Below are positions 4,214 through 63,831 of a stretch of DNA of 64,000 bases, one piece after another. Below the pieces are notes generated by a model that did not search any database, had not been told where the DNA came from, and worked only from the letters and a program-made list of their open reading frames with translations. The stretch is from a virus, in UHGV virus genome UHGV-0098755; one strand, given 5' to 3'. A program made the translations under genes and the position numbers. The first letter of the stretch is position 1. Every line of letters begins with the position of its first letter.

Positions 4214-4222
4214 CATTTTATT

Positions 4223-13924: not shown

Positions 13925-13958
13925 ATTATTCTCGCTTATTATAGGTTTAAATATTTAA

Positions 13959-14762
13959 TCACATATTATGTATAAGCACTTCAGTCTGAAATGATGCACC
14001 TTTCTTTTGCTTCCTATACATGGTTTCAAAATATTCAATTTTGAAATTATTAGAAAGGGCCCAATCTTTTAAAATATAATTATTAATATCGTCTGATAGA
14101 TTATTAGTGATAATAAATTTAGACTTTGACCGTTTAATTTTATCTAATAATTCTAATTCATCCTTTTCTTCCCATCCTGAATATTTAAATTTAGTAGAAA
14201 GATAAGGCGGGTCAATGAATAAATTTTTGTTTTCAAAATCTAAATCTCTGAATGATTTATTACTAAATGTAAATCGGTGTTGTCTATTTTTAAATTCAGA
14301 AAATTTATCCTGCTGAGACTTATTAAAAGAAGTTCTAGAATACTTGGCTCTATTGGCGAAAGCCGCGTTATAGTTCCCATTACTAGAAAATCGGATTAAT
14401 GAACTGAATGAAAATAAATGTAGAACATAAAGATATAGTCCGTTTTTGGTTTTATCGTATTCTTTTGACAGATTATAAAAAGGTGCTGAATCTTTGTCAT
14501 TCAAATTGAAGTCTTCAATAATTTGAACTATATCATTAATTGAAGATGATTTCATCTTTTTATACATGTCTATAAGAGGAGTATTAATATCATTACATAT
14601 AACATTTCTTTGACAATTCATAGAAAATCCAAGACCGCCACAAAAAGCATCCAAAACGGGCTTATCATCAAAGCGGTTTGAAAATTGTCTAATAAATGGC
14701 ATATACTTATGCTTTGCACCTGGATATGTTATGGCAGGTAGGTCTTTCATATTATTTCTCAT
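13959..14762 (-). CDS. Dam-family N6-adenine DNA methyltransferase paralog (267 aa)
   Basis: Motif X YPGAK, motif I LDAFCGGLG, NDI, motif IV DPPY; collinear similarity to the canonical Dam at 60725-61504. Confidence 0.85.
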   Translation of the reverse strand: MRNNMKDLPAITYPGAKHKYMPFIRQFSNRFDDKPVLDAFCGGLGFSMNCQRNVICNDINTPLIDMYKKMKSSSINDIVQIIEDFNLNDKDSAPFYNLSKEYDKTKNGLYLYVLHLFSFSSLIRFSSNGNYNAAFANRAKYSRTSFNKSQQDKFSEFKNRQHRFTFSNKSFRDLDFENKNLFIDPPYLSTKFKYSGWEEKDELELLDKIKRSKSKFIITNNLSDDINNYILKDWALSNNFKIEYFETMYRKQKKGASFQTEVLIHNM

Positions 14763-14769
14763 TTGTTAG

Positions 14770-14787
14770 TGACTCGTCCATGAGTCA
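14770..14787 (-). promoter_or_regulatory. stem-loop (UGACUC-loop-GAGUCA) in the 32-nt leader of the methyltransferase gene
   Basis: 6-bp inverted repeat between nrdA stop (14795-14797) and the methyltransferase ATG (14760-14762); no strong Shine-Dalgarno. Confidence 0.3.
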
Positions 14788-14794
14788 TATTATA

Positions 14795-17059: not shown

Positions 17060-17376
17060 AAGTCCTCAACTTGAAAATCGTCTTTAAACAATCGGTTAAC
17101 TATATGAGCTATTATATCACCATGACACGGCTTTGGTTTACATGTGCATCCTAGCCTCATTCCACGTAAAGGCTCTAAATGTGCTTTAGTTATTTCTCCG
17201 GATTTAATTCGACGTATAAAATCTTTTTTGAATAATTCAATGGCAGCCTCCCGGCTGCCAGCATCTTTACCGACGTAATTTCCCCAAAATGTACCGCGGT
17301 GAATATTAACATCAAAGTCGGATTTGTATTTATTCACTACCCGGCATAGACGGCCCACGCTGGAATAATTCGTCAT
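17050..17376 (-). CDS. hypothetical protein (108 aa) with CxC...PCHGD motif
   Basis: ORF track; [14 protein letters not shown] cysteine/histidine cluster. Confidence 0.55.
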
Positions 17377-17593
17377 ATTGTTTTTCCGTTAAAACAGTAA
17401 TATCGTAGTAACAGTCAGAAGAAGTTTTAACTGTGGAAATTTTATTATCAAAATACTCACGAGTCATTTTATGAGTATAGTATTTTTTACCATAAATGGT
17501 AATAGGCTGTTCTGGTCCTGGAACTTCTAACTCGCTTGGGTTAGGAAGTGTAAAAAGAACAACGCCAGAAGTATCTTTAAATCGTAAAATCAT
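17330..17593 (-). CDS. hypothetical protein (87 aa)
   Basis: ORF track; overlaps the preceding ORF by 47 nt, so one start may be mis-set. Confidence 0.5.
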
Positions 17594-17901
17594 ATTGCCA
17601 TTTTCCCTTTAATTGCTGGATGCGATTCATAATTTTCAAGGATAAAATCTTTCGGTTTCATGTATTCAGTTAACCAGTAAAGCTGTGTTTCGGTGTCACA
17701 ATTTCCAAACTCTATAGGCCAATCAATTTTAAGTTCACATAGTTCTTTAGGCTCACGACGTAAAATTTCTTTACATTGCTCAGTATGATTCATATAGATG
17801 TGAGTATTACCACCAGAAAATATCAAATCTCCTGGGATAAGATTACACATCTTAGCTACAATATGAACTAACGAAGCATATGATGCAATATTAAATGGAA
17901 G
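17590..17901 (-). CDS. td: thymidylate synthase, exon 2
   Basis: Encodes [21 protein letters not shown]...KGKMAI; the first codon follows the intron's terminal G at 17902. Confidence 0.9.
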
Positions 17902-18917
17902 CATTATGTTCAGATAAGGTCGTTAATCTTATCCCGGAATTATATCCAGCTGCATGTCACCATGCAGAGCAGACTATATCTCCAACTTGCTAAAGCAAGT
18001 TGTCTATCGTTTCGAGTCACTTGACCCTACTCCCTAAAGGGATAGTCGTTAGGCATTTATGTAGAACCAATTCCACTTATCAGATTTTACACGGTAAGTA
18101 ACTAATCCGGATGAAATTTCAAAATATCTAGCTGCATCAGCTGCACATTCAAAAATAATCCCATCACATGAAATCTTTTTAATATTATTAGGCTTTTTAC
18201 CTTTCATCTTTTCTGATATTTTAGATTTAGTTTTGTCTGAATGCTTATGATTAAAGAATGAATTATTTTCACCTGAACGATTTCTGCATTTACTACAAGT
18301 ATAAGCAGAAGCTTGTATGCGAACACCGCATTCACAAAACTTATGGGTTTCTGGATTCCAACGCCCGTTTTTACTTCCGGGTTTACCGTAAAGAGCTTTC
18401 CGACCATCAGCGCCAAGCTTAAGCATCTTAGCTTTAACAGTTTCAGAACGTTTCTTAATAATTTCTTCTTTTAATGGATGCACAGAATATGTATCACCAA
18501 ACGTTGCATCAGCAATATTGTATCCATTAATTTTAGAATTAAGCTCTTTAATCCAAAAATTTTCTCGTTCAATAATCAAATCTTTCTCATATGGAATTTC
18601 TTCCAAAATAGAGCATTCAAACACATTACCGTGTTTGTTAAAAGACCTTTGAAGTTTTATAGAAGAATGGCATCCTTTTTCTAAGTCTTTAAAATGCCTC
18701 TTCCATCTCTTTTCAAAATCTTTAGCACTTCCTACATATACTTTATTGTTTAAAGTATTTTTAATCTGATAAATTCCACTTTTCATAAATACCTCTTTAA
18801 ATATAGAAGTATTTATTAAAGGGCAGTCCTACAATTTAGCACGGGATTGTCTACTAGAGAGGTTCCCCGTTTAGATAGATTACAAGTATAAGTCACCTTA
18901 TACTCAGGCCTCAATTA
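17902..18917 (-). mobile_element. group I self-splicing intron of td (1016 nt) carrying the I-TevI gene
   Basis: Starts UAAUUGAGGCCUGAGUAUAAGGUGACUUAUACUUG... after exon-1 GGU; ends ...AUG before exon 2; the length matches my recollection of the T4 td intron. Confidence 0.9.
18049..18786 (-). CDS. I-TevI GIY-YIG homing endonuclease
   Basis: 245 aa, MKSGIYQIKNTLNNKVYVGSAKDFEKRWKRHF... GIY-YIG N-terminus, zinc finger and C-terminal DNA-binding region. Confidence 0.95.
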   Translation of the reverse strand: MKSGIYQIKNTLNNKVYVGSAKDFEKRWKRHFKDLEKGCHSSIKLQRSFNKHGNVFECSILEEIPYEKDLIIERENFWIKELNSKINGYNIADATFGDTYSVHPLKEEIIKKRSETVKAKMLKLGADGRKALYGKPGSKNGRWNPETHKFCECGVRIQASAYTCSKCRNRSGENNSFFNHKHSDKTKSKISEKMKGKKPNNIKKISCDGIIFECAADAARYFEISSGLVTYRVKSDKWNWFYINA

Positions 18918-19466
18918 ACCCAAGAAAACATCTACTGATCGTTGATACCATTGTAAATCAAGATAACCATTACGCACATTAAACTGATAGAACATATGAC
19001 AGGGCGGTAATGCCATTTGATTGATTTCAGCTGGATTCCATGCTGAAACGATTTGACGTCGATCAGTTGGTAATTTTTTAATACGATCAATAGTTTCAAC
19101 TAATTGATCCACACCACCGAAATCACGCCATTGTTTACCGTATATAGGACCAAGTTCACCACTATGATATCCTAGGTCTTTAGCCTGGTTTTCATAGTTA
19201 TCGTCCCAAATAGTTTTACCTTGAATAAGACTACCATGAGTGCGAAGACGTAAATCATTAACATTGGTAGAACCGGAAATAAACCATAGAAGCTCAGCAA
19301 TGCAAGCTTTCCAGGCGAGCTTTTTGGTTGTTACCGCAGGAAAACCTTTGGTTAAATCCCAACGCAATTTAGTACCGAACAAAGCAATTGTTCCTGTGCC
19401 TGTTCGGTCATCGGTTTCGTAGCCATTTTCAAAAATGTCTTTAATTAAATCTTGGTATTGTTTCAT
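18918..19466 (-). CDS. td: thymidylate synthase, exon 1
   Basis: 183 codons MKQYQDLIKDIFENGYE...QRSVDVFLG; the frame is closed by the intron's first UAA. Confidence 0.9.
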
Positions 19467-19510
19467 TTAGTACCTTATATAAATTATAATACATTTTATG
19501 AAGCTAATAA

Positions 19511-21301: not shown

Positions 21302-21355
21302 TTTATTCTCCTTAATTGATAGGGTAATAGTATCACACTACTACCCTTCTGTAAA

Positions 21356-21736
21356 CTACTTTTTGAAAGTTTTTCGCAAAAGTTCAATGATTTCATCTAC
21401 ATTGTTTTCGTCAACAATGCAGTGAATTTTTGTTACGCCAGAAATCTTGTCTTCGACTTCATCTTCTTCAGAAGTCGGTTCTTTATACTCACGAAAACAA
21501 TGAAATTCATCTTCACAAATTTCTAAAAGTCTATCTTTGAGGTAAAAATGTTTTCCATTTGCGCATTCAATGTGTTTTACTGCTTTATATCCATTAGCGA
21601 CGGAAACTTCTTTAACTTCAAACCATCCGCCATTATCTCGAATAGCTTTAACTATTGATGAATTAGAACGTGGGCTATAATTAATAAATGTATCAATAAG
21701 TCTTGGAACAAGTTCATACTTTCTACCAGTATACAT
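21356..21736 (-). CDS. hypothetical protein (126 aa)
   Basis: ORF track; GAGGAAAA Shine-Dalgarno. Confidence 0.6.
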   Translation of the reverse strand: MYTGRKYELVPRLIDTFINYSPRSNSSIVKAIRDNGGWFEVKEVSVANGYKAVKHIECANGKHFYLKDRLLEICEDEFHCFREYKEPTSEEDEVEDKISGVTKIHCIVDENNVDEIIELLRKTFKK

Positions 21737-22054: not shown

Positions 22055-22084
22055 ATAGTACCATAAAGCTTTATGCTTGTAAAC
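22055..22084 (-). promoter_or_regulatory. putative early promoter (-35 GTTTAC, 18-nt spacer, -10 TACTAT) with conserved leader
   Basis: gtaaac at 22079-22084, atagta at 22055-22060; near-identical module at 38802-38831 and 42664-42693. Confidence 0.45.
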
Positions 22085-22107
22085 CGTTTTGTGAAAAAAT
22101 TTTTGAA

Positions 22108-23065: not shown

Positions 23066-23164
23066 TTTTATTTCCTTTTTAATTTAATTAACAGTTGGTG
23101 CTATGACGATGTATGACCTCATAGCTGGTCAGTGAGATAATTATAATCTATTTATAATAAGCAA

Positions 23165-25326: not shown

Positions 25327-25388
25327 ATGAACCTCGTTCAATTAGTGAGATTTCTATTATATACCATCCAAATCTTAAAGTAAACAAG

Positions 25389-25430: not shown

Positions 25431-28400
25431 ATGGCCGAGATTAAAAGAAAGTTCAGAGCAGAAGATGGTCTGGACGCAGGTGGCGATAAAATAATCAACG
25501 TAGCTTTAGCTGATCGTACCGTAGGAACTGACGGTGTTAACGTTGATTACTTAATTCAAGAAAACACAGTTCAACAATATGATCCAACTCGTGGATATTT
25601 AAAAGATTTTGTAATCATTTATGATAACCGCTTTTGGGCTGCTATAAATGATATTCCAAAACCAGCAGGAGCTTTTAATAGCGGACGCTGGAGAGCATTA
25701 CGTACCGATGCAAACTGGATTACGGTTTCATCTGGTTCATATCAATTAAAATCTGGTGAAGCAATTTCGGTTAACACTGCAGCTGGAAATGACATTACGT
25801 TTACTTTACCGTCTTCTCCAATTGATGGTGATACTATCATTCTCCAAGATATTGGAGGAAAACCTGGAGTTAACCAAGTTTTAATTGTAGCTCCAGTGCA
25901 AAGTATTGTAAACTTTAGAGGTGAACAGGTACGTTCAGTACTAATGACTCATCCAAAGTCACAGCTAGTTTTAATTTTTAGTAATCGTCTGTGGCAAATG
26001 TATGTTGCTGATTATAGTAGAGAAGCTATAGTTGTAACACCAGCGAATACTTATCAAGCGCAATCCAACGATTTTATCGTACGTAGATTTACTTCTGCTG
26101 CACCAATTAATGTTAAACTTCCAAGATTTGCTAATCATGGCGATATTATTAATTTCGTCGATTTAGATAAACTAAATCCGCTTTATCATACAATTGTTAC
26201 TACATACGATGAAACGACTTCAATACAAGAAGTTGGAACTCATTCCATTGAAGGCCGTACAACGATTGACGGTTTCTTGATGTTTGATGATAATGAGAAA
26301 TTGTGGAGATTGTTTGACGGGGATAGTAAAGCGCGTTTACGCATTATAACGACTAATTCTAATATTCGTCCAAATGAAGAAGTTATGGTATTTGGTGCGA
26401 ATAACGGAACAACTCAGACAATTGAACTTCAGCTTCCAACTAATATTTCCGTTGGTGATACTGTTAAAATTTCCATGAATTACATGAGAAAAGGACAAAC
26501 AGTTAAAATCAAAGCTGCAGGTGAAGATAAAATTGCTTCTTCAGTTCAATTGCTGCAATTCCCAAAACGTTCAGAGTATCCGCCTGAAACTAAATGGGTG
26601 ACTGTTCAAGAATTGGTTTTTAACGGCGAAACTAATTATGTTCCAGTTTTACAGCTTGCTTATATAGAAGATTCTGATGGAAAATACTGGGTTGTACAAC
26701 AAAACGTTCCAACTGTAGAAAGAGTTGATTCTTTAAATGATTCTACTAGAGCAAGATTAGGCGTAATTGCTTTAGCTACACAAGCTCAAGCTAATGTCGA
26801 TTTAGAAAATTCTCCACAAAAAGAATTAGCAATTACTCCAGAAACATTAGCTAACCGTACTGCTACAGAAACTCGCAGAGGTATTGCAAGAATAGCAACT
26901 ACTGCTCAAGTGAATCAGAACACCACATTCTCTTTTGCTGATGATATTATCATCACTCCTAAAAAGCTGAATGAAAGAACTGCTACAGAAACTCGTAGAG
27001 GTGTTGCTGAAATTGCTACGCAGCAAGAAACTAATGCAGGTACTGATGATACTACAATCATTACTCCTAAAAAGCTTCAAGCTCGTCAAGGTTCTGAATC
27101 ATTATCTGGTATTGTAACTTTTGTATCTACTGCAGGTGCTACTCCAGCTTCTAGCCGTGAATTAAATGGTACGAATGTTTATAATAAAAACACTAATAAT
27201 TTAGTCGTTTCGCCTAAAGCTTTGGATCAGTATAAAGCTACTCCAACACAGCAAGGTGCAGTAATTTTAGCAGTTGAAAGTGAAGTAATTGCTGGACAAA
27301 GTCAGCAAGGATGGGCAAATGCTGTTGTAACGCCAGAAACGTTACATAAAAAGACATCAACTGATGGAAGAATTGGTTTAATTGAAATTGCTACGCAAAG
27401 TGAAGTTAATACAGGAACTGATTATACTCGTGCAGTCACTCCTAAAACTTTAAATGACCGTAAAGCAACTGAAAGTTTAAGTGGTATAGCTGAAATTGCT
27501 ACGCAAGTTGAATTCGACGCAGGCGTCGACGATACTCGTATCTCTACACCATTAAAAATTAAAACCAGATTTAATAGTACTGATCGTACTTCTGTTGTTG
27601 CTCTATCTGGATTAGTTGAATCAGGAACTCTCTGGGACCATTATACCCTTAATATTCTTGAAGCAAATGAGACACAGCGTGGTACACTTCGTGTAGCTAC
27701 ACAAGTTGAAGCTGCTGCAGGAACATTAGATAATGTTTTAATAACTCCTAAAAAGCTTTTAGGTACTAAATCTACCGAATCGCAGGAAGGTGTTATTAAA
27801 GTTGCAACTCAGTCTGAAACTGTGGCTGGAACGTCAGCAAATACTGCTGTATCTCCAAAAAATTTAAAATGGATTGTGCAGAGTGAACCTACTTGGGCAG
27901 CAACTACTGCGATAAGAGGCTTTGTTAAAACTTCATCTGGTTCAATTACATTCGTTGGTAATGACACAGTTGGTTCTACACAGGACTTAGAGCTATACGA
28001 GAAAAATAGCTATGCAGTATCACCGTATGAATTAAACCGTGTATTAGCAAATTATTTGCCGTTAAAAGCAAAAGCTGCTGATACAAATTTATTGGATGGT
28101 CTAGATTCATCTCAGTTCATTCGTAGGGATATTGCACAGACGGTTAATGGTTCACTAACCTTAACCCAACAAATGAATCTGAGTGCCCCTCTTGTATCAT
28201 CTAGTACTGCTACGTTTGGTGGATCAGTTTCGGCAAATAGTACATTAACTATTTCTAATACTGGAACGGCAACTCGTCTGATTTTTGAGAAAGGACCTCA
28301 GACTGGAACTAACCCAGCGCAGACGATGGCTATCAAAGTTTGGGGAAATCAGTTTGGTGGAGGATCAGATACAGCACGTTCTACTGTATTTGAAGTTGGT

Positions 28401-38124: not shown

Positions 38125-38760
38125 TCACAGTTCAGATGCTACAGTAATTACAGCTTCAATGTTTTCTGCCGAGCGTTTAATGTCAAGATACACATTACCG
38201 TTTTTAGCGATTTTACATGACATTCCGATATCAGTAAATTTCTGAATATGATGTTCCATCATTTTGTATCCAAAAATTCGCATATTTCCATTGTTGTTAA
38301 TTTCAAAATTACGAATTCCGTGAGTGCGTTTTTCTAAAATAGCGAGATAGTTACTGCGATAAGTTTCAACCTTTTTAAGAACAAATCCATTTTCATCTAA
38401 AAGTTTTAACATGAAGTCTTTATCTTCTTCCATATCAGAAGTAATCTCACGAGCTTTACGAGTTGCTCGTTTTTTCAGCAGTTCTGGAGCATTTTCCTGC
38501 GCGTATAAAGTTGCTGCGTTTGAAATAATATCTTGAGCTTCACCTGTAATGATTAATCCATCACCAGATTTCTCCACCAGGCCTTTTTTAATCAATACCC
38601 CAATATTACTATTAACTACTGCATTACCTAAATCTGGATGCACCTCACGAACTTCTGCGGCTGTAATGAAATCTTTCTTAGCAATAGTAATTAAAATCGC
38701 AGCAGTTTTTTCATTCAGAACATCGTTAGAAGCTTTGATGATGTAAGTTACTTTAGACAT
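38125..38760 (-). CDS. motA: middle transcription activator MotA
   Basis: 211 aa, MSKVTYIIKASNDVLNEKTAAILITIAKKDFIT... Confidence 0.95.
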   Translation of the reverse strand: MSKVTYIIKASNDVLNEKTAAILITIAKKDFITAAEVREVHPDLGNAVVNSNIGVLIKKGLVEKSGDGLIITGEAQDIISNAATLYAQENAPELLKKRATRKAREITSDMEEDKDFMLKLLDENGFVLKKVETYRSNYLAILEKRTHGIRNFEINNNGNMRIFGYKMMEHHIQKFTDIGMSCKIAKNGNVYLDIKRSAENIEAVITVASEL

Positions 38761-38801
38761 TTTCTAATCTCCGTAATTCTGTATCAGTAGTTGATAGTTG
38801 T

Positions 38802-38831
38802 ATAGTACCATAGAATGCTTTGGTTGTAAAC
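38802..38831 (-). promoter_or_regulatory. putative early promoter for motA (-35 GTTTAC, 18-nt spacer, -10 TACTAT) with conserved leader
   Basis: gtaaac at 38826-38831, atagta at 38802-38807; leader ACAACUAUCAACUACUGAUACAG shared with other loci. Confidence 0.5.
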
Positions 38832-38856
38832 CGTTTTGTGAAAAAATTTTTGAAAT

Positions 38857-38882
38857 AAAAAAGGGAGAGCCGAGGCTCTCCC
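38857..38882 (-). terminator. intrinsic terminator (GGGAGAGC-loop-GCUCUCCC plus U6)
   Basis: Hairpin 38863-38882, A-run 38857-38862 on the plus strand. Confidence 0.6.
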
Positions 38883-38887
38883 TAAAA

Positions 38888-41938: not shown

Positions 41939-41968
41939 ATAATACCACAGAGGAACAGTCTTGTAAAC
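41939..41968 (-). promoter_or_regulatory. putative early promoter (-35 GTTTAC, 18-nt spacer, -10 TATTAT)
   Basis: gtaaac at 41963-41968, ataata at 41939-41944. Confidence 0.45.
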
Positions 41969-42153: not shown

Positions 42154-42426
42154 TCATAGTTCAATCTCAGCGATTTTCATTTCATTACTATTAATAGCCG
42201 CTTTAAGACTATCTGAAAGAATTACATTCCAGTGGTCATTCATATGACCATTGACTAAGCGTGTAATTTCTTCGGGAGTTGAAAAATAAGGCGTATCAGA
42301 CTCCCAGTGCGATAGTCCCAAGCGAGTATAAATCATACCTTCATCATCGCTAGAATATTCAACTGACACAAACTCATCAGTTATTTTATGTTTAGCGTAA
42401 TAAAATTTAAATTTCATTTTACTCAA
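42154..42426 (-). CDS. hypothetical protein (90 aa)
   Basis: ORF track. Confidence 0.55.
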   Translation of the reverse strand: MSKMKFKFYYAKHKITDEFVSVEYSSDDEGMIYTRLGLSHWESDTPYFSTPEEITRLVNGHMNDHWNVILSDSLKAAINSNEMKIAEIEL

Positions 42427-42629
42427 TAATCCGCTAAAAGATCGACGATTGCATCACGAAGACACTTATTCGCAATACGTTTAAGAGCAATTTCAGTTTC
42501 TGGGGCATTTTGAATAATCATTGAATTCAATTCAGCCTCAGCAAACTGAAGTTCTTTAACTAATTCAGCTTTATATTTTCCTTGTCCTTTCTTAGCTTTT
42601 GCTCGTTTTAGTTCAGCTGTAGTAAACAT
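42423..42629 (-). CDS. hypothetical protein (68 aa from ATG at 42629)
   Basis: GGAGAATAAA Shine-Dalgarno before MFTTAELKRAKAKKG...; the track's 102-aa version reads through the upstream promoter. Confidence 0.55.
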   Translation of the reverse strand: MFTTAELKRAKAKKGQGKYKAELVKELQFAEAELNSMIIQNAPETEIALKRIANKCLRDAIVDLLADY

Positions 42630-42663: not shown

Positions 42664-42693
42664 ATAGTACCACAGTCCTTGTGGTATGTAAAC
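42664..42693 (-). promoter_or_regulatory. putative early promoter (-35 GTTTAC, 18-nt spacer, -10 TACTAT), spacer palindrome CCACAAGGACUGUGG
   Basis: gtaaac at 42688-42693, atagta at 42664-42669. Confidence 0.5.
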
Positions 42694-42712
42694 CGTTTTG
42701 TGAAAAATTTTT

Positions 42713-43270
42713 TTAAATGGAAAGATACCATCCGTTGTAGTTGCTTTTTCTTACAACCTTACGAAGGTCTTCTCTATCACCGATGAACTTCGGAGTGTAC
42801 TGGATGACACCTGGATAAATTTCTTTAGTGTTGAATATAATTATACAGTCAGCGACTTGATGATTCAGAATGGGCCCTAGATTTATTCCAGAACCGTATG
42901 GATACTCTCCGCTGCATCCTGTTGTTACAGAAATCCAACGTGAGTCAGTTTGGTGTGTCTTAACTTCTACACGAAGCCCGCAGTATCTTGGATGCGCCAA
43001 TACATCCCATGCGTATGTATACGGGTCATTAACATCCTCTTGGCCTTTGTTAACATACCCGCTTAGCCAATCTGCTACAAAAAACTCTGCATACACAGCG
43101 ATACGGCATCTTTCGATGACTTCTGCTTTATCCTGATTTGGATTTTGTTTTAAAGAGTATCTTGCTGTATCAGCAATTTTGACCTTCATTTCACTAGTCA
43201 AGTCATTGTTCGACATGGTAAATGCCGGAATCTGAAACAGTCTCTGTAAACCCGGATTCGTTTTCTGCAT
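42713..43270 (-). CDS. denB: endonuclease IV
   Basis: 185 aa, position between ndd.x genes and rIIB as in T4. Confidence 0.8.
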   Translation of the reverse strand: MQKTNPGLQRLFQIPAFTMSNNDLTSEMKVKIADTARYSLKQNPNQDKAEVIERCRIAVYAEFFVADWLSGYVNKGQEDVNDPYTYAWDVLAHPRYCGLRVEVKTHQTDSRWISVTTGCSGEYPYGSGINLGPILNHQVADCIIIFNTKEIYPGVIQYTPKFIGDREDLRKVVRKSNYNGWYLSI

Positions 43271-46945: not shown

Positions 46946-46975
46946 ATTATACCACATCCTTGTGGTAAAGTAAAC
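46946..46975 (-). promoter_or_regulatory. early promoter (-35 GTTTAC, 18-nt spacer, extended -10 TGGTATAAT)
   Basis: gtaaac at 46970-46975, attata at 46946-46951; spacer palindrome CCACAAGGAUGUGG. Confidence 0.55.
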
Positions 46976-48792
46976 TATTGGCTCATCCATTCTTTACGAA
47001 GGTCAGCATTATCTCCCATGAGCATTTCAAAAAGTTCTTTCCAATTCTCAGGAAGTTTAACAACATCATATACTGGATTTTGAATCATCTCACGATATTC
47101 AGATTTTTCCAAAGAGCCAAGTCCCTTAATATAACGGATGTTATGTTTAGGTAGAGCATCTTTGGCACTCTCATATTCAGCGACTGTATAAAACCATTCT
47201 TGTTTTTTACCGACCTGAGCGATGATTACAGGAGTTTTGACAAAGCGAATTCTTCCTTGTTCAAACAGTTCTGGCCAATTACTGAAAAATCCGAGCAGAG
47301 AAGGATAAATGCTTCCTAGACCATCGTGGTCAGCGTCAGTCATAATAGCAATATTATGATAATTCAAGTTTTCGGCTTTTTCACCAAGAACTAATCCAGT
47401 GATTGCGCAAATATCAAACAGTTCTTTGTTTTTAAGCATATCAGCATATGACATACCCCAACTGTTGAGAACTTTACCACGTAATGGATAACCACCATGA
47501 AGTTCTTTATCACGAACATCAATAAGATATCCAATAGCAGAATCACCCTCAGTCAAGAAAAGAGTAGTATCAGCATCTTTACCACAAAGATTCGCTTTGA
47601 TATGTTTATGAACCTTAGCTTTAGAAGCCTTTTTAGCTGCTTTAGTTTCTGCTGCTTTTTCTGCCGCCAATTTACGAGCTAATGCTGCTTCAATAATCGG
47701 CATCAAAATCGCTTCATTATTCAAAATAGCACGTGAAATCTTTTTAGCATCAAGTTGAATATGACTACGGATTTCACCAAAAGGAGAAGTAAGTCGTTCT
47801 TTAGTTTGAGAATCAAATCGCATGTTTTTCATATCACGAACAAACATAACGATAGTCAAACATTCTTTAACGCGTGCTTTAGTTACATCAATTTTGAACT
47901 TGCGTTTGATTTGTGGAATAAGGTCTTCACAAATATCATCCATAACACAGTCAATGTGATGGCCACCATTCTTAGTATGAATGTTATTGACGTACGTCAA
48001 CTGACGAAAACCATCCGGTGAACGACCAACCGCAATAGAACAGTTTTCTTGTTCTTGAACGATAGCATGTTCATCATATTGGCGTGCATATTTCTTAAAA
48101 TTACCCTGAACCTTTTTACCATTAAAGGTAAATTGAATATCAGGATAAACTACTGCAAGTGTCTGGAGACGATCCAGTGTAATGTCAAGATAAACTTGGG
48201 ACAACTCATTAGTTTCAAATGACATAAAATCAGGAATGAAAGTAACACGAGTTCCTTTCCATTTTCCAGGAATATCTTCCCATGATTTATTTTCCATGCC
48301 ATTTGAACAACGAACTACAATATTATTTTGACCATCACCAGTTTCACCGACAAACATCACAGAAAAAATGTTTGTCAAACTAGAACCAACACCATTCATA
48401 CCGCCAGTGACGCGTTCTTTATCATCACCGAAGTTACCACCTGCTTTTGGAATAGTCCATGCAGCAACAGGACCAGGAATTTCTTCACCGGTAGGTGTTT
48501 TAACCATAGCCTGTGGAATACCGCGACCGTTATCTTCAACTGTTACTTGATTGTTTTTAATAGTAACATTAATTTTATTTGCGAATTTAAACTTAGTACG
48601 AATACCTTCATCTACTGAGTTATCGATAATTTCATCAATAAGCTTAACAAGACCAGGTACATACTGAACACTTTCCCATTTACCAAACAGAAAGCGCTCA
48701 TGCATTTCATTAGCTGAAGAGCCAATGTACATGCCGCTACGCTTTTTGATATGTTCAATATCGCTCAGAATTTTAATTTCATTCTTAATCAT
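46975..48792 (-). CDS. 39: DNA topoisomerase II large subunit gp39, unsplit (ATPase plus C-terminal region in one ORF)
   Basis: 605 aa from ATG at 48792 (MIKNEIKILSDIEHIKKRSGMYIGS...); continuous through the region that is gene 60 in T4. Confidence 0.95.
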   Translation of the reverse strand: MIKNEIKILSDIEHIKKRSGMYIGSSANEMHERFLFGKWESVQYVPGLVKLIDEIIDNSVDEGIRTKFKFANKINVTIKNNQVTVEDNGRGIPQAMVKTPTGEEIPGPVAAWTIPKAGGNFGDDKERVTGGMNGVGSSLTNIFSVMFVGETGDGQNNIVVRCSNGMENKSWEDIPGKWKGTRVTFIPDFMSFETNELSQVYLDITLDRLQTLAVVYPDIQFTFNGKKVQGNFKKYARQYDEHAIVQEQENCSIAVGRSPDGFRQLTYVNNIHTKNGGHHIDCVMDDICEDLIPQIKRKFKIDVTKARVKECLTIVMFVRDMKNMRFDSQTKERLTSPFGEIRSHIQLDAKKISRAILNNEAILMPIIEAALARKLAAEKAAETKAAKKASKAKVHKHIKANLCGKDADTTLFLTEGDSAIGYLIDVRDKELHGGYPLRGKVLNSWGMSYADMLKNKELFDICAITGLVLGEKAENLNYHNIAIMTDADHDGLGSIYPSLLGFFSNWPELFEQGRIRFVKTPVIIAQVGKKQEWFYTVAEYESAKDALPKHNIRYIKGLGSLEKSEYREMIQNPVYDVVKLPENWKELFEMLMGDNADLRKEWMSQ

Positions 48793-50328: not shown

Positions 50329-50607
50329 TTAATTGAACAGTGGAGCGATACGTTTCAGAAGAGTAGCAGCACCTTTGGCGAATTTTACATCATGAAAAAC
50401 AGTTTCTTCTGTAACAACTCGAGCTTTAATATTTTCACAATCCCAATTTTTACGAACAATCTTCAAAAGCTGCAGTAAATCTTTACATTCAGCAATATCG
50501 ATAACACATCCACGAGAATCTTCCATTATCGCACGATAACCGTAAGCCATACCATAATCGTTGAAAGATTGCTCGATGATAATTAAGTTTTCCATTTTAT
50601 TCTCCAA
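50329..50607 (-). CDS. hypothetical protein (92 aa)
   Basis: ORF track; downstream of a palindromic promoter/leader module. Confidence 0.55.
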   Translation of the reverse strand: MENKMENLIIIEQSFNDYGMAYGYRAIMEDSRGCVIDIAECKDLLQLLKIVRKNWDCENIKARVVTEETVFHDVKFAKGAATLLKRIAPLFN

Positions 50608-50692
50608 GTTATTTTCTGTATCAGTAGTTGATATTGATATAGTACCATAATCAACTACTGATGTATATAGTTTTATGAAAAAAATTTAAACT

Positions 50693-51181: not shown

Positions 51182-51257
51182 AGTTATCTCTCACTTGTTA
51201 AAAAGATTTTATACTTCACGGGACCATTATACTCTGGTCCCAAGAGTTTGTAAACTA

Positions 51258-51802: not shown

Positions 51803-52342
51803 TTATCTCATTTCAATAAAATCTACGAGTTCAGCATGCGATTTGCGGAACATTACTTGGTGCCCACCAATGATAACTTCATCTTCAGGAACTTCGTATA
51901 CAGCGAGATAAAATCCTTTAGAAGATAATTCTTCCCGTTCTTCTCGCGTGAACCATCTCATCATATCATATTCGCTAGCGAAAGCAAAATGATAAAGACC
52001 TATAAACCATCCTGGAATATGATATTCTACTCCAACATAATCTTTCTTGAACTTAGTATTAATTACTATATTAGCGTTTTTAACTAATAGTTTATCTTCG
52101 TGTGGTAAAGGAATTCTTTTATTATTATCGCTATGATGCATAAAATTAGGTCTGTCATAACCTACGTGTAATAGCCACTCTTCGCTCCATGAATCTATTA
52201 TACTCCTGTACGGCGTTATTTGAACACAAAGATTTCGACGTATTGTTATAGCATCTTCATAATCAAGAATACTAAACGATGATTCAACACGATAAATTTT
52301 CATTTTATTATCCTCAGTAGCTATGGTGTTATAATACCACAA
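51803..52342 (-). CDS. hypothetical protein (179 aa), motB.2-like
   Basis: ORF track. Confidence 0.6.
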   Translation of the reverse strand: MWYYNTIATEDNKMKIYRVESSFSILDYEDAITIRRNLCVQITPYRSIIDSWSEEWLLHVGYDRPNFMHHSDNNKRIPLPHEDKLLVKNANIVINTKFKKDYVGVEYHIPGWFIGLYHFAFASEYDMMRWFTREEREELSSKGFYLAVYEVPEDEVIIGGHQVMFRKSHAELVDFIEMR

Positions 52343-52366
52343 CTAACCGAGGAAGTAAACAACTTT

Positions 52367-55956: not shown

Positions 55957-55986
55957 ACTATAACATTTTTACTTCAGGTTGTAAAC
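55957..55986 (-). promoter_or_regulatory. putative early promoter (-35 GTTTAC, 18-nt spacer, -10 TATAGT)
   Basis: gtaaac at 55981-55986, actata at 55957-55962. Confidence 0.5.
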
Positions 55987-56043: not shown

Positions 56044-56646
56044 TTATAGATTAAATCCTTCAAAATCAAGAGTATAGATAGTGTATGTTGAATACTTTTT
56101 GTACTCATATCTATCTGCAATTCTAAATACACTTCCAGCTGGTATCATTACTTCTTGTTCATCTGAAACTAATTCCATATTACGATAGCGATGGCTATCC
56201 GGAAACTTAAAACTTGGACTATATTCTTTACAACGTAGAGCTTTTATAGCATACTCCTGGAAATTAAATACCATAGGAGCTTTGAATTCAAAAATAACTT
56301 GTGTATTGTATTCTAATCCAGAAGCAAAATGTAGAGCTATATTTTTATCATATGAAGCTGATACTACTTTATCAAATGTAATAATATCAATTCCTTGATT
56401 TAACACCTGCTTAGTTTCAACTGGAACACCTCTCCAAAGAGGTTTATCGTTTGGAACCAAACGAGATTTGATTATTTCATTTAACCAAGAATGATCGTCT
56501 GGCTTATTAGTAATACAATGAATTAAAAGTTCAATTTCGGATAAATTAAACCCTTCAGAAAGTAATTCTTCACGAATAGAAGCACGCACCGATGCATCCA
56601 TTGATTTTATTTTAAAATCTTTTAGTTGCATTACTGAGTATTTCAT
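56044..56646 (-). CDS. modA: ADP-ribosyltransferase ModA
   Basis: 200 aa; ART-type EQE motif (SDEQEVMIPAGS); tandem with a 207-aa paralog. Confidence 0.8.
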   Translation of the reverse strand: MKYSVMQLKDFKIKSMDASVRASIREELLSEGFNLSEIELLIHCITNKPDDHSWLNEIIKSRLVPNDKPLWRGVPVETKQVLNQGIDIITFDKVVSASYDKNIALHFASGLEYNTQVIFEFKAPMVFNFQEYAIKALRCKEYSPSFKFPDSHRYRNMELVSDEQEVMIPAGSVFRIADRYEYKKYSTYTIYTLDFEGFNL

Positions 56647-57266
56647 TCAACTACCTCAATATCATAAACTTTAAATGTTCCAAATGAATCGTGTAATTTT
56701 TCTTTTGAAATAGAAGTTATTCTATACTTTCCAATTGGAATCATCCATTCTTGTTCACGCACAATCATCATTAAGTTATCAGTACGCTCTGAATCTAGCC
56801 CATCAGTATCTTCATACGTGTACTTGAACTCAGTATTAGGAGAAGAAAGTATAATATCGCTGATATGGTCAGAATAATTAAAAGCTTTATCAGTTTTTAA
56901 GCGGAATATTATTTTAGTAAAATATTCAGCATAAGAAAAAGAACATGCTGTGAGTAAACTAGTAGTAAATGAATCTACCCTGTTCGTTGAAAACACTTCT
57001 CCAACTTGTAAATCTTTAATAAGTTCTTTTGTCGATTTTGATATACCACGATATAACTGATAAGGCGATTTAGTTAAATGCTTTTTAATGATTTTATTCA
57101 ACTGCCGATGAAGAGCTTCATTCTTTTTGGCTTCCATACATTGCCAAAGAACAGACTGCTCAAAGTCAGTAAATTTTTCACAGACCTTTTTATACATATC
57201 ATATTGAAAATCAACGCTTTCAGCTTTTATAGATAACTGTTCAACATCTGCAAGATTAATAATCAT
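56643..57266 (-). CDS. modB: ADP-ribosyltransferase ModB
   Basis: 207 aa; EQE motif (VREQEWMIPIGK); paralog of the preceding ORF. Confidence 0.8.
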   Translation of the reverse strand: MIINLADVEQLSIKAESVDFQYDMYKKVCEKFTDFEQSVLWQCMEAKKNEALHRQLNKIIKKHLTKSPYQLYRGISKSTKELIKDLQVGEVFSTNRVDSFTTSLLTACSFSYAEYFTKIIFRLKTDKAFNYSDHISDIILSSPNTEFKYTYEDTDGLDSERTDNLMMIVREQEWMIPIGKYRITSISKEKLHDSFGTFKVYDIEVVE

Positions 57267-57333
57267 GATAGCCTCCGTATACTTCAGAAGCTATCATATC
57301 ATCGTTAGAAAGGAAAGTAAACAACTTTTTGAA

Positions 57334-59424: not shown

Positions 59425-59434
59425 TGCAAAAACG

Positions 59435-59459
59435 AAAAAAGGAACCCCGAAGGATTCCT
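59435..59459 (-). terminator. intrinsic terminator after soc (AGGAAUCC-UUCG-GGGUUCCU plus U-tract)
   Basis: Hairpin 59440-59459, A-run 59435-59440 on the plus strand. Confidence 0.55.
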
Positions 59460-59467
59460 TAAATTAT

Positions 59468-59741: not shown

Positions 59742-59951
59742 TTAAATTACATGACTATTTATAATAAATTCTCGCGGAACGTTAAAATATCCAATTTTAG
59801 TTAATATAACAACATCACCATTAATAATTACCGGAGAATAATCTTCTGGAGCATTAAATTTCCAATGGGCTCTAATATTATATCCATCAGAACCAAATGC
59901 TCGACTAGCCGGTCTCCCGGCTTTTTGCCATGCGTAGAAATCAAATTTCAT
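59742..59951 (-). CDS. hypothetical protein (69 aa)
   Basis: ORF track; occupies the soc-56 interval. Confidence 0.55.
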   Translation of the reverse strand: MKFDFYAWQKAGRPASRAFGSDGYNIRAHWKFNAPEDYSPVIINGDVVILTKIGYFNVPREFIINSHVI

Positions 59952-60142
59952 TTTGAATGCTCTATAATTAATTTTAAAGCTTCTTCACTGACAAAAATTT
60001 CGTCAGGACCTTCTATAACTTCAACCATATGAAGTTGATTAGTTAAGAGCTCACACACGAGCTCTTTGTTATAATCTTTAAATAGCTGGTCAATACGTTT
60101 CTTATGGGCTTTCTTAAGCTGACGTTTATTTAAACGAGCCAT
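59948..60142 (-). CDS. hypothetical protein (64 aa)
   Basis: ORF track. Confidence 0.55.
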   Translation of the reverse strand: MARLNKRQLKKAHKKRIDQLFKDYNKELVCELLTNQLHMVEVIEGPDEIFVSEEALKLIIEHSK

Positions 60143-62964: not shown

Positions 62965-62976
62965 ATTAGCCTCTAA

Positions 62977-63270: not shown

Positions 63271-63330
63271 GATAATCTCCTCAGTAGTTTATGTTTATAT
63301 AGTATCTCAATTTCCAACAAAAGTAAACAG

Positions 63331-63801: not shown

Positions 63802-63831
63802 ACTATACCATAGTCTCGTCAGCTTGTAAAC
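63802..63831 (-). promoter_or_regulatory. putative early promoter (-35 GTTTAC, 18-nt spacer, -10 TATAGT)
   Basis: gtaaac at 63826-63831, actata at 63802-63807; -10 flanked by inverted repeat AGACUA/UAGUCU. Confidence 0.5.

Follow-up and report, generated by a model that had tools for sequence, protein, structure and literature searches.

T4-like phages are well known to take over the host RNA polymerase through strong early promoters. The immediate-early promoters of bacteriophage T4 (the Pe class) have been described as an array of UP, -35, TGn and -10 elements with additional consensus regions (Hinton 2010 review, PMC2988021), in which the T4 convention places GTTTAC at -36..-31 (Nolan et al. 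2006, PMC1524935). T4-type phages also carry PeSL (promoter-early stem-loop) cassettes (Arbiol et al. 2010, PMC2839356; Comeau et al. 2014, PMC4122927), which in T4 and PST follow the arrangement TTTACW-N17-TAYWAT (Comeau et al. 2014, PMC4122927); both the Pe class and its role as a recombination cassette are already published. At the RNA level, sequestration of the RBS in a hairpin that contains the promoter is established for the T4 genes e, soc, 49 and I-TevI (Uzan & Miller 2010, PMC3014915). In addition, the RegB/S1 cleavage consensus has been defined as GG*AGRAYARAA (Durand et al. 2006, PMC1702504), the motA, motB and motB.2 RNAs being documented RegB substrates and the SD GGAG of T4 motA RNA a known target (PMC1702504).

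The window analysed here, the whole 64,000-nucleotide stretch of virus genome UHGV-0098755, is mosaic Tequatrovirus DNA, 95-97% identical to Tequatroviruses, and has matches in ~750 Tevenvirinae genomes. It contains 19 matches to GTTTAC-N18-TANNNT, all on the minus strand and none on the plus strand, where shuffled sequences gave an expectation of 0.93; at spacings of 14-17 and 19-22 nt between GTTTAC and TANNNT, the number of matches on either strand was 0-2. A preliminary description of this DNA had listed nine such promoters, and all nine coordinates are exact minus-strand matches, the count itself having been too low. Its 18-nt spacer holds if the -35 element is written as GTTTAC, following the T4 convention, and equals an ordinary 17-nt sigma-70 spacer if the element is written as TTTACW, which is how a generic sigma-70 scan reads the motif (TTTACW/17). 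As this generic scan showed no enrichment in the window (76 promoters found, 80.7 expected), only the T4-specific signature is informative.

Aligned column by column, the sites follow the profile UP / GTTTACa / TgTGnTAttAT / tatcaa. The extended -10 (TGn) shows a G at -14 in 17/19 sites and a T at -15 in 15/19, and the A/T-rich UP-like tract has an A at -40 in 16 sites and at -44 in 16 as well, together with further phased A/T positions. Starts were placed 7 nt after the -10, a rule for which Pe133295 and the mapped rnh start (150,727) served as checks, and an SD-ATG, its SD often GGAG, was found 19-38 nt from the predicted start in 19 of 20 sites. Sense orientation directly 5' of an early gene with an SD-ATG was found for 18 of the 19 pattern sites and for an additional copy at 50621, site 25884 being the one that fails.

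For every site, T4 has a counterpart at the corresponding gene junction. The modB and srd sites coincide with -35/-10 features of GenBank X98695.1, the site at 8430 with Pe133295, named in a note of the T4 record, and the rnh site with a T4 promoter that has a primer-extension start at T4 150,727 (PMC6024815). For the sites beyond these four, the support is positional orthology; apart from one note, the T4 records NC_000866 and AF158101 hold no promoter features. Six of the sites are the following:

25356 to 25385, minus strand: rnh early promoter, T4 start mapped at 150,727 (PMC6024815)
36337 to 36366, minus strand: asiA early promoter, by pattern match and T4 orthology
55957 to 55986, minus strand: srd early promoter, TTTACA-17-TATAGT, curated in X98695.1
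59395 to 59424, minus strand: early promoter upstream of mrh.2, with a terminator hairpin and T-run upstream
63299 to 63328, minus strand: early promoter upstream of sp (spackle), by pattern match and T4 orthology
25884 to 25913, minus strand: doubtful pattern match, antisense in tail-fibre gene 34, without TG, A/T tract or SD-ATG

The last site runs antisense in gene 34, and its T4 counterpart at 151262 falls within the coding sequence of that gene; as it has neither the TG, the A/T tract nor any SD-ATG, it probably does not function as a member of the set. With each site orthologous to a T4 early-promoter position, and four of them being curated or mapped T4 promoters, the early-promoter reading of the preliminary description proved correct: we consider, at a probability of about 0.93, that the repeats are immediate-early promoters (Pe) of a T4-like phage of the genus Tequatrovirus. 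The sequence architecture, the enrichment, the orthology to mapped T4 promoters and the recombination footprints reported below come from the present analysis; polymerase contacts, timing, Alt stimulation and RegB cleavage in this phage would follow the T4 literature by analogy, and so would the starts and strengths of the promoters. Under this reading, unmodified host sigma-70 RNA polymerase would recognise each promoter through four stacked elements: the A/T-rich UP tract, which the C-terminal domains of alpha would contact; the -35 GTTTAC(W), specific to the phage; a spacer of 17 nt with the extended -10 (TGn) at its end; and the TAnnnT -10. The transcript would begin 7 nt past the -10, in most cases with the A of the conserved tATCAA, giving a leader of 19-38 nt that ends in the SD.

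MotA/AsiA-dependent middle promoters were rejected, as every site has GTTTAC at -36..-31, where the MotA box (a/t)(a/t)(a/t)TGCTTtA, centred at -30, replaces the -35 element (PMC1524935). TGCTT-like strings in the motA spacers of some relatives were also discarded as MotA boxes, for they lie 7 nt from the -10 and not 11-13 nt. No Rfam family reached its gathering score anywhere in the window.

The promoter at motA was dissected into four adjoining features:

38862 to 38883, minus strand: intrinsic terminator hairpin at the end of motA.1, AGGGAGAGCC-TCGG-CTCTCCCT followed by a T-run
38832 to 38861, minus strand: A/T-rich UP-like tract TTTTTTATTTCAAAAATTTTTTCACAAAACG, with the conserved A at -40 and -44
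38802 to 38831, minus strand: motA early promoter core, GTTTAC (-36..-31), 18 nt including TATGG (extended -10), and TACTAT (-10)
38761 to 38801, minus strand: motA discriminator and leader, with predicted start A 38795, SD GGAG 38772-38769 and ATG 38760

The terminator has 9 pairs, 6 of them G-C, followed by T6, and its stem-loop, which shows a loop variant in one T4-type relative, is part of the cassette. The promoter core, orthologous to positions 163644-163673 of T4, would drive motA from directly behind this terminator, and an early-type promoter is kept at motA in relatives whose MotA identity ranges from 52 to 100%. The TTTTTTATTTCAAAAATTTTTTCACAAAACG tract is repeated identically at 22079-22104 and with one mismatch at 42688-42713, at two of the three promoters that were grouped with this one:

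42664 to 42693, minus strand: early promoter of the motA sub-family (in T4, upstream of ndd.6), spacer palindrome TACCACA-aggac-TGTGGTA
22055 to 22084, minus strand: early promoter upstream of frd.3 and behind the gene 32 terminator, spacer with the 14-bp palindrome CATAAAGCTTTATG
50622 to 50668, minus strand: fourth sub-family copy, before cef, with -35 ATATAC, intact TATGGTACTAT and 11-bp arms on either side of the -10 (z=-4.63)

A near-identical leader had been proposed for 22055, 38802 and 42664. It is exact at 38802 and present at 42664 with a 3-nt deletion, where it ends in GGAGAATAAAATG (42639-42627), but it does not extend to 22055, which has only the first 9 nt after the -10 in common with it and then diverges; what 22055 and 38802 have in common is a stretch of ~35 nt upstream of the -35, 97% identical. 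The further copy described at 50621-50680 carries the shared leader with 3 mismatches in 23 nt, and the 11-bp inverted repeat ascribed to it is present (CAGTAGTTGAT, 50660-50650, and ATCAACTACTG, 50632-50622), although its -35 is degenerate (ATATAC and not GTTTAC), the degenerate promoter lying at 50639-50668. The ORF downstream of it, just before cef, exists in T4 only as a frameshifted relic. Together with the copy that precedes cef, the promoters at motA, frd.3 and the ndd.6 region form a paralogous sub-family of four members. They fit the PeSL elements of the literature, to which they are equivalent as terminator/UP/promoter/leader cassettes of 60-100 bp. Across the 19 sites, an upstream terminator is clear at 38802, was recognised by inspection at 22055, 59395 and 5016, and is absent or not clear at the remaining 15. 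A duplicate of the alc promoter occurs in T4 at alt.-3.

That these repeats could be recombination substrates, as the preliminary description suggested, is supported both by the PeSL literature (PMC2839356, PMC4122927) and by footprints detected in this analysis. In relative L005, a 23-bp leader duplication flanks an ORF inserted next to motA, the upstream cassette being degraded, and behind the 42664 cassette there are three gene-content states with one common SD-ATG junction. The T4 promoter at 27051 is chimeric, with an ndd.4-type spacer and a motA-type leader, whereas the frd.3 promoter has had its spacer swapped in relative L027, in which the 22055 palindrome is replaced. At 21327, an 86-bp indel is flanked by SD-ATG direct repeats. 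Indels that start at the SD-ATG are among these footprints, and SD-ATG microhomology, not the promoter proper, was used at 3 of 4 junctions. When cassette-end indels were compared with random gene boundaries, the excess was not significant (P~0.18, an estimate based on 4/11 non-endonuclease indels at a cassette, with ~21% of gene starts carrying one). Because they are repeated, the cassettes would serve as short homologies for the insertion, deletion or swapping of ORF-sized modules.

The same leaders carry putative RegB sites. Five exact copies of GGAGAATAAAATG match the RegB consensus, four leaders end in a perfect match to it (GGAGAATAAAA), and the motA leader GGAGATTAGAA matches it at 10/11 positions. 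This site belongs to the leader RNA and not to the promoter, and its cleavage in this phage would be expected by analogy with T4.

The palindromes quoted in the preliminary description are all present (CCACAAGGACTGTGG at 42664, CCACAAGGATGTGG at 46946 and AGACTA...TAGTCT at 63802), and palindromes exceed chance in three geometries. For inverted repeats of any geometry, the mean best arm over the 19 sites was 6.16 bp against 5.14, with arms of at least 6 bp at 13/19 sites where 30% were expected (P~2e-4 against random windows, 0.001-0.005 against spacer/leader chimeras). Arms bracketing the -10 were found at 5/19 window sites (P.007-.016) and, among diverged loci, at 6/29 (P.0015-.014); for spacer palindromes, the figures were 4/19 (P=.011) for the window and 6/14 (P=1e-4) for Mosigvirus moha. 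Most promoters, the focal motA included, have no significant inverted repeat. The promoters concerned are listed below, where values in kcal/mol are predicted increases in the cost of opening the TIR in read-through RNA, ranks are those against 18 chimeras and z is the folding z-score of that RNA:

57293 to 57322, minus strand: modB early promoter, annotated in X98695.1, +13.4 kcal/mol, rank 0/18, z=-4.75
52331 to 52360, minus strand: motB.2 early promoter, anti-SD TTCCTC directly 3' of GTTTAC, +9.9, rank 0/18, z=-5.59
41939 to 41968, minus strand: ndd.4 early promoter, +18.3, rank 0/18, z=-3.92
11107 to 11136, minus strand: alc early promoter, spacer predicted to pair with the SD region in a 22-bp helix, +9.8, z=-4.27
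5016 to 5045, minus strand: 30.8 early promoter, terminator GGACTCC-TTCG-GGAGTCC upstream, +10.5, z=-2.50
63802 to 63831, minus strand: dmd early promoter, predicted 15-bp helix bracketing the -10 with core AGACTA/TAGTCT, z=-3.18, TIR free
51226 to 51255, minus strand: motB early promoter, GGGACCA/TGGTCCC bracketing the -10, z=-2.82
8430 to 8459, minus strand: early promoter corresponding to T4 Pe133295 (cd.2), GGTAGAG/CTCTACC bracketing the -10, z=-2.97; an extra 520 bp separates it from cd.2 in the window
46946 to 46975, minus strand: early promoter upstream of rIIA.1, spacer palindrome TACCACA-agga-TGTGGTA
21327 to 21356, minus strand: early promoter upstream of frd.1, AGGGTA/TACCCT bracketing the -10, leader ending in GGAGAATAAAATG

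A binding site for a regulator, the second role that had been suggested for these repeats, was not supported. In that case, the palindromes would be DNA sites for a dimeric protein, for instance a candidate factor shutting off the early promoters, which fall silent a few minutes after infection by a mechanism acknowledged as not fully understood (PMC2988021, PMC3014915), and a similar core CCACA-AGGA-TGTGG does recur in several spacer palindromes, the second genus included. However, the arms are unrelated between promoters (AGACTA, GGGACCA, GGTAGAG, AGGGTA, CAGTAGTTGAT, CTGTTCCTC) and co-vary between paralogous ones (CCACA/TGTGG, CACCA/TGGTG, AACCA/TGGTT, ACACA/TGTGT), substitutions giving G.U are tolerated even though G.U is a mismatch in duplex DNA, and most promoters, motA among them, lack a significant inverted repeat. 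Arms that differ and tolerate G.U point to RNA structure rather than to a common DNA-binding protein, and the DNA-site explanation, already disfavoured, is in our view very improbable. As for CCACA-N5-TGTGG as a CRP-like site, it was dismissed by reasoning alone, the order of its half-sites being reversed.

The alternative that we regard as having nearly an even chance is that the inverted repeats act as RNA, a reading which adds to that of the promoters rather than replacing it. With left arms at -30..-8, the repeats begin ahead of the predicted +1, so that the hairpin could form only in read-through transcripts coming from an upstream promoter. At modB, motB.2, ndd.4, alc and 30.8, the predicted hairpin would bury the SD and/or the AUG, and by analogy with T4 both translation of the gene and cleavage by RegB would be restricted to transcripts that its own early promoter makes. 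In the modB read-through RNA, the -10 region and adjacent bases are predicted to pair with the SD, the AUG and codons 2-3; at motB.2, a predicted 17-bp helix covers GAGGA; at ndd.4, the spacer CTGTTCCTCTGTGGT would pair with ACTACGGAGGAACAG, SD included, in a helix with three wobble-compatible substitutions among relatives; and at 30.8 the spacer TCCTTTGT would pair with ACAAAGGA of the SD. The motB.2 helix was obtained by folding as UCCUCGGU.AGUUGUGGU/ACCAUAGCUACUGAGGA, with the T4 change falling in its loop, and a pairing of TATTAT with ATAATA, broken in T4, was rejected on that basis. In dmd, motB, cd.2, frd.1 and the copy upstream of cef, the prediction is instead a self-contained hairpin that encloses the -10 and leaves the TIR free.

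In addition to the enrichment of arm length, -10 bracketing and spacer palindromes, several results argue for such RNA structures. The predicted cost of opening the TIR is higher by 10-18 kcal/mol in the read-through RNA of the five occluding promoters, each of which exceeds all 18 chimeras (set-level P=0.0008, with the same result in T4), and nine read-through RNAs have folding z-scores of -2.5 to -5.6, that of motA being -0.42. IMG/VR and metagenome scans yielded no more than 5-13 close relatives per region. Among close relatives, substitutions were 13 compatible to 2 breaking in the structured set against 15 to 25 in the unstructured one (Fisher P=0.0012). This tally is stratified by folding significance; the pooled version, over all default folds, was uninformative, with 28 compatible and 27 breaking changes, and included swapped segments that are not orthologous. 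At one pair of the dmd helix, the states G-C, G.U and A-U all occur among relatives. In four Mosigviruses, strongly occluding helices are likewise predicted for the orthologues of modB and motB.2 (+14.6 and +16.0 kcal/mol, with z of -4.5 and -6.8). Their sequences are different ones, that of the motB.2 helix being UUCUCCUCUGGUU/AACCAGAGGAGAA; moha also keeps the cd.2 helix and shows a double compensatory change in a motB-type cassette, GGGAGCA/TGCTCCT. Moreover, modB RNA has been noted to behave like RNA made RegB-resistant in vitro by stable structure (PMC1702504).

Against this, the RNA structures are predictions throughout, and formal covariation is negligible: the RNAalifold term was -0.08 for modB, motB.2 gave no usable consensus, and across genera there was no usable covariation because the helices use different registers. 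The substitution test fell to P=0.034 against strictly orthologous controls and to 0.06 in a strict binomial from Watson-Crick pairs. Occlusion of the TIR as a general property of early promoters was rejected, with P=0.06 in diverged motA-region loci and P=0.14 in moha, where the alc pairing is lost (+0.3 at the moha alc promoter) and that of 30.8 is weak. The 22055 palindrome was replaced outright in L027, and the 30.8 promoter sits behind a strong terminator, so read-through would be limited there; cleavage or translation of the nascent RNA could also pre-empt folding (PMC1702504).

Some of these observations would equally suit inverted repeats with no function, left as by-products of mutation or recombination, either through quasi-palindrome-templated repair in unconstrained intergenic DNA or through slippage between cassettes. 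Mutation templated by quasi-palindromes has its classical model in T4. The repeats vary in geometry and are confined to a minority of promoters, the 22055 palindrome and the alc occlusion are lost in a close relative and in moha, respectively, and covariation is weak, as stated above. Nevertheless, we consider this origin rather unlikely, since the modB and motB.2 occluding helices recur across two genera despite extensive intergenic divergence and the relocation of motB.2, substitutions in the arms favour changes that preserve pairing when compared with unstructured control regions, and all five occluding pairings exceed every chimera.

Returning to the RNA reading, we propose tentatively, at somewhat less than even odds, that a subset of the early promoters acts as a cis-acting translational gate, with the -10 hairpin of a second subset shielding the downstream TIR from the transcribed promoter. 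In the gate, the promoter DNA from -30 to -8 would encode an anti-TIR arm transcribed only on read-through RNA, so that toxic early genes such as motB.2 and modB (with the overlapping modA), the over-expressed product ModB being lethal to the cell, would be translated and exposed to RegB only from their own early-promoter transcripts and would fall silent once that promoter is shut off. In the second subset, the self-contained hairpin would prevent the promoter sequence, once transcribed, from disturbing the TIR that follows it.

Taken as promoters, the sites are of interest for annotation only, as markers of 19 immediate-early transcription units and of an early regulatory layout that is that of T4. 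The footprints, in turn, are concrete examples of the published idea that promoter/leader modules act as seams for the shuffling of small accessory genes, as in the leader duplication around the ORF inserted next to motA and the relic mini-ORFs of T4 itself. The potentially useful new point is that of promoter-embedded anti-RBS arms; if true, toxic early enzymes such as ModB would be confined to a short early-promoter burst despite continuing read-through, and a simple design rule would emerge, that of a promoter masking its own gene on foreign transcripts.

Compared with the T4 Pe class, the sites have in common the GTTTAC at -36..-31, the A-rich tract at -40..-44, the GT-rich extended -10 and the TAnnnT, as well as the position 5' of early genes and one-to-one positional orthology; nothing essential differs, beyond point changes in spacers and leaders and other ORFs behind some promoters. 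With the PeSL elements, they have in common the terminator stem-loop, the A/T tract, the TTTACW-N17-TAYWAT promoter and the SD-ATG, and also the crossovers between the -10 and the ATG and the indels or replaced ORFs alongside, the ndd.4-ndd.6 region, a published PeSL example, being a region of indels and ORF replacement here too. In contrast, only 4/19 promoters have an upstream stem-loop here, so that the strict PeSL architecture applies to a minority, and several junctions use the SD-ATG module (GGAGAATAAAATG) and not the promoter. No mention of inverted repeats spanning the -10 or reaching the TIR was found in the PeSL description, and the predicted occluding pairing at modB and motB.2 that recurs in Mosigviruses may be new. 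Finally, the arrangement resembles that of T4 e, soc, 49 and I-TevI in that an internal start follows the 5' arm, only the read-through RNA would fold, and the SD and/or AUG is found in the helix, here by prediction. In those genes, however, the internal promoters are late (or middle) and separate early from late expression, whereas here the internal promoter is itself early, and the switch would thus separate the origin of the transcript and not the period of infection.

The 64-kb window contains 19 matches to GTTTAC-N18-TANNNT, all of them on the minus strand, against 0.93 expected from dinucleotide-preserving shuffles; other spacings (14–17 and 19–22 nt) gave 0–2 matches per strand. The nine promoters listed in the preliminary description all fall within this set, which includes ten overlooked sites as well (5016, 11107, 21327, 25356, 25884, 36337, 51226, 52331, 57293, and 63299, named by the lowest coordinate of the match). 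The 18-nt spacer reported there follows the T4 numbering convention and equals the canonical 17 nt once the hexamer is set as TTTACW against TTGACA, as a generic scanner does on these promoters (TTTACW hexamer, 17-nt spacer) and as the pattern is written in Comeau 2014 (TTTACW-N17-TAYWAT; PMC4122927). The generic sigma-70 consensus was not enriched in this A/T-rich window (76 found vs. 80.7 expected), so only the phage-specific signature is informative.

Judged from its sequence, the window is a mosaic Tequatrovirus, 95–97% identical to many T4-like coliphages, identical to none, and collinear with T4 from ~125.3 kb across the map origin to ~20.8 kb. Running the same pattern on T4, read against its annotation, revealed a counterpart at the same gene junction for every window site. 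The genes behind the sites are 30.8, cd.2, alc, frd.1, frd.3, rnh, asiA, motA, ndd.4, ndd.6, rIIA.1, motB, motB.2, srd, modB, mrh.2, sp, and dmd. The surroundings of the focal promoter are as follows:

38802-38831, minus: focal early promoter, driving motA
38125-38760, minus: motA ORF, with the focal site 42 nt upstream
38883-38862, minus: strong terminator hairpin, with the focal site directly downstream

Along the 19 sites, GTTTAC is invariant and followed by A or T, TgTGn lies ahead of a TAttAT -10 element, a weaker tATCAA surrounds the start, and the upstream A/T positions are phased, with A at -40 and at -44 in 16/19 sites each. This profile equals the published architecture of the T4 early promoters, described as "Über" UP/-35/TGn/-10 promoters with additional consensus regions (Hinton 2010, PMC2988021), with GTTTAC at -36 to -31 and an A-rich tract at -40 to -44 (Nolan 2006, PMC1524935). 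In the T4 modA/modB record (GenBank X98695.1), the GTTTACT/TATGAT annotated before modB is exactly window site 57293, and the TTTACA/TATAGT before srd exactly site 55957. Moreover, "Pe133295", named in the T4 record, lies 7 nt below the -10 of the site 8430 orthologue, and the rnh early start detected by primer extension at T4 150,727 (PMC6024815) lies 7 nt below that of the site 25356 orthologue. Placing the start 7 nt after the -10, a Shine–Dalgarno (SD) sequence and ATG were found 19–38 nt past the predicted start in 19 of 20 sites, including the 50621 copy, a cassette upstream of cef with a degenerate -35 (ATATAC). The exception was 25884, antisense in gene 34 and lacking the TG, the A/T tract, and the SD-ATG. 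Its match (25884-25913, minus, GTTTAC-N18-TACAAT), within this tail-fibre gene, is kept in T4 at 151262-151291; it is probably not an origin primer promoter, because the annotated oriG is 1.7 kb away.

The early-promoter call thus holds on all sequence-level features and by orthology to mapped promoters, and the reported module is the textbook, already known T4 early class. As in T4, these promoters would fire immediately with unmodified host polymerase, Alt would stimulate some of them, and AsiA would leave them largely unaffected; within a few minutes they would be silenced, in a way that is only partly understood. The binding assay with AsiA/MotA proposed earlier would give no information, neither factor being required at early promoters.

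The motA promoter was characterised by Uzan, Brody and Favre in 1990, as cited in PMC3014915. RegB is documented to cleave motA RNA (PMC1702504), the leader of which carries a GGAG at 38772-38769 in the window. The 13-mer GGAGAATAAAATG agrees perfectly with the strong RegB/S1 consensus GG*AGRAYARAA. Its five exact copies in the window (0.00 expected) are all minus-strand, and four form the leader end (5016, 21327, 42664, and the 50621 copy). The fifth, at 4586-4598 (minus), carries the consensus plus ATG at a gene junction without an early promoter, ~400 bp downstream of the 30.8 promoter.

The near-identical leader attributed to 22055, 38802, and 42664 was found at 38802, at 42664 with a 3-nt deletion, and, differing at 3 of 23 nt, in the 50621 copy, but not at 22055; past the -10 this last site agrees with 38802 for no more than 9 nt, and upstream it has in common with 38802 an A/T tract 97% identical over 35 nt. 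Common to these four sites are the tract AAAAATTTTTTCACAAAACG, the -10 region TATGGTACTAT, and the leader beginning; two of them also have the terminator and T-run. This repeated module is the promoter-early stem-loop (PeSL) cassette already published by Arbiol 2010 and Comeau 2014, the strict architecture of which is present in 4 of the 19 window sites.

The suggestion that such repeats are recombination substrates was correct and also already known, and footprints in relatives support it qualitatively. Two regions of the window are involved in the first cases:

42154-42629, minus, between the 42664 promoter and ndd.6: two small ORFs, of 68 aa (MFTTAELKRAKAKK...) and 90 aa (...NSNEMKIAEIEL, then stop)
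50390-50595, minus, between motB and cef, behind the degenerate -35 copy: intact ORF (MENLIIIEQSFNDYGMAYGYRAIME...)

Behind the 42664 promoter, gene content takes three forms, all with one common upstream junction: the window has two ORFs, IMGVR_UViG_2974787500_000001 only the second (90 aa), and T4 none, the promoter SD-ATG being joined there to the final 8 codons of the missing ORF as an unannotated relic (MKIAEIEL and stop, 167017-166997). Near cef, T4 (~6482-6560) has a 198-bp deletion from 7 nt past the ATG of the intact ORF, with junction GAAAA/TAAAA, leaving a frameshifted 11-codon relic in an annotated intergenic stretch. In the same IMG/VR locus (4100-4500), the MotA of which is 100% identical, an inserted 75-codon ORF (MKFKIENEIVKAKNALTANK...) separates motA.1 from motA, with 23 bp of leader sequence directly repeated on its two sides; 41 bp of the upstream cassette (T-run, UP tract, -35) are gone, and in the new motA promoter the spacer is shorter by 1 nt.

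Exchanges within the cassette were detected too. The T4 promoter at 27051-27080 is a chimera of an ndd.4-type spacer and a motA/ndd.6-type leader, the spacer of the frd.3 promoter is swapped in locus L027, and the beginning of the ndd.4 leader in locus L008. The alc promoter is duplicated in T4 upstream of alt.-3 over ~50 bp through the SD, with one difference (123064-123093 vs. 136307-136336). At 21327, an 86-bp T4-specific segment with an SD-ATG module on either side holds an unannotated 22-codon hydrophobic ORF (MFAPYIMAAVMLVCLYLLIKAC, then stop; T4 146015-146083), located between the frd.1 early promoter and frd.1 and absent from the window (site 21314-21316). At 8430, a 520-bp window-specific segment (7878-8396), absent from T4, starts right after the SD and before cd.2; its first ORF begins MSEWFEEDKV.... 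Upstream of modB in phage ATK47, the -35 is tandemly duplicated (GTTTACAAAAGTAGTTTACATTCCC...), which looks like slippage within the cassette. The terminator upstream of mrh.2 (59425-59460, minus) reads GGAATCC-TTCG-GGGTTCC in the window and GGACTCC-TTCG-GGAGTCC in most relatives, a difference of one compensatory pair change and a wobble; since the hairpin ahead of the 30.8 promoter (5046-5080, minus) has exactly the sequence of these relatives, the stem-loop itself is a dispersed repeat. The window and T4 differ by 11 non-endonuclease indels, 4 of which adjoin a cassette, and around a fifth of gene starts carry one, so by our estimate the association is statistically not beyond random placement at gene boundaries.

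Apart from the cassettes, T4 features missing from the window are the nrdB intron with I-TevIII, segG, the 60.1/mobA segment by which gene 39/60 is split in T4, segF, and 61.2 (window positions 13257-13260, 23128-23164, 47310-47375, 59763-60142, and 62975-62976), and the nrdB.1/mobE region of the window is replaced (13919-14799). Positions 14799-19469 are collinear at full length with T4 140420-145115, which holds the td group I intron; no Rfam family reached the gathering score anywhere in the window, this stretch included.

The quoted palindromes and the 11-bp inverted repeat (50660-50650 / 50632-50622) were all found exactly as described. From -30 to +25, the best perfect inverted repeat averages 6.16 bp in the 19 sites and 5.14 bp in random windows, and arms of at least 6 bp occur in 13/19 sites (30% expected, P~2e-4), an enrichment kept against spacer/leader chimeras of different promoters (P 0.001–0.005). 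Three geometries were distinguished:

(i) Spacer-internal, the GT-rich extended -10 being the 3' arm: for example TACCACA...TGTGGTA at 42664 and 46946, CATAAAG/CTTTATG at 22055
(ii) Arms bracketing the -10: 63802, 51226, 8430, 21327, 25356, and the 50621 copy
(iii) Complementarity between the spacer or -10 region and the SD and/or AUG that follow: 41939, 57293, 52331, 11107, and 5016

Geometry (i) occurs in 4/19 window sites (P=0.011) and 6/14 of Mosigvirus moha (P=1e-4), where the spacer palindromes co-vary (CACCA/TGGTG, AACCA/TGGTT, ACACA/TGTGT); geometry (ii), with unrelated arm sequences, in 5/19 window sites (P.007–.016) and 6/29 of diverged loci (P.0015–.014). A common DNA-binding regulator, also proposed in the preliminary description, is very improbable, given that the arms co-vary and show no sequence relationship to one another from promoter to promoter.

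In all three geometries, the transcript of the promoter itself starts downstream of the 5' arm; therefore, an RNA hairpin is possible solely in read-through transcripts. For class (iii), opening the SD-AUG is predicted to cost 10–18 kcal/mol more in the read-through RNA than in the own transcript, each case above all 18 chimeric controls (set-level P=0.0008), with the same result in T4. Nine read-through RNAs folded with z-scores of -2.5 to -5.6; that of the focal motA promoter had no significant fold (z=-0.42).

Comparison with close relatives, comprising T4 and loci from IMG/VR and metagenomes, gave 13 pair-compatible and 2 breaking substitutions in the helices with significant folds, vs. 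15 and 25 in the default folds of unstructured promoters (Fisher P=0.0012; P=0.034 against strictly orthologous controls, 0.06 in a strict binomial from Watson–Crick pairs). One dmd helix pair is G-C, G.U, or A-U in different phages, and since G.U is accepted there, RNA is the more plausible acting form than DNA. In a second genus, represented by four Mosigviruses, modB is again predicted to be strongly occluded (+14.6 kcal/mol, z=-4.5), its distal helix made of other spacer bases and other codons 2–3, and motB.2, relocated beside cef, keeps the anti-SD directly after GTTTAC (UUCUCCUCUGGUU/AACCAGAGGAGAA; predicted +16.0 kcal/mol, z=-6.8). In moha, the cd.2 helix is retained and the arms of a motB-type cassette differ by a double compensatory change (GGGACCA/TGGTCCC vs. 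GGGAGCA/TGCTCCT); the alc occlusion is gone and that of 30.8 weak. Occlusion was not class-wide (P=0.06 in diverged loci, P=0.14 in moha), one close relative has another sequence in place of the 22055 palindrome, and alignment-based covariation across the two genera was negligible because their registers differ. That the set as a whole is functionless, a product of templated mutation or recombination, seems unlikely to us.

The best-supported reading, to which we give a probability of roughly 0.4–0.45, is that the palindromes act as RNA, masking hairpins operating at least in modB and motB.2, the ribosome-binding sites of which would be hidden on long transcripts and free when transcription starts at their own early promoter. 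Three observations fit masking: ModB over-expression kills the cell, modA overlaps the modB end (ORFs 56044-56646 and 56643-57266), and Durand et al. (PMC1702504) likened modB RNA to RNA made RegB-resistant in vitro by stable structure. The putative promoter-embedded complements of the translation initiation region and the -10-bracketing hairpins, supported by prediction, chimera controls, and cross-genus recurrence, may go beyond the literature searched. Masking at modB and motB.2 would follow the logic of T4 e, soc, 49, and I-TevI, whose ribosome-binding sites are masked on long transcripts and free on those from internal promoters (PMC3014915), with the difference that the internal promoter here is an early one.
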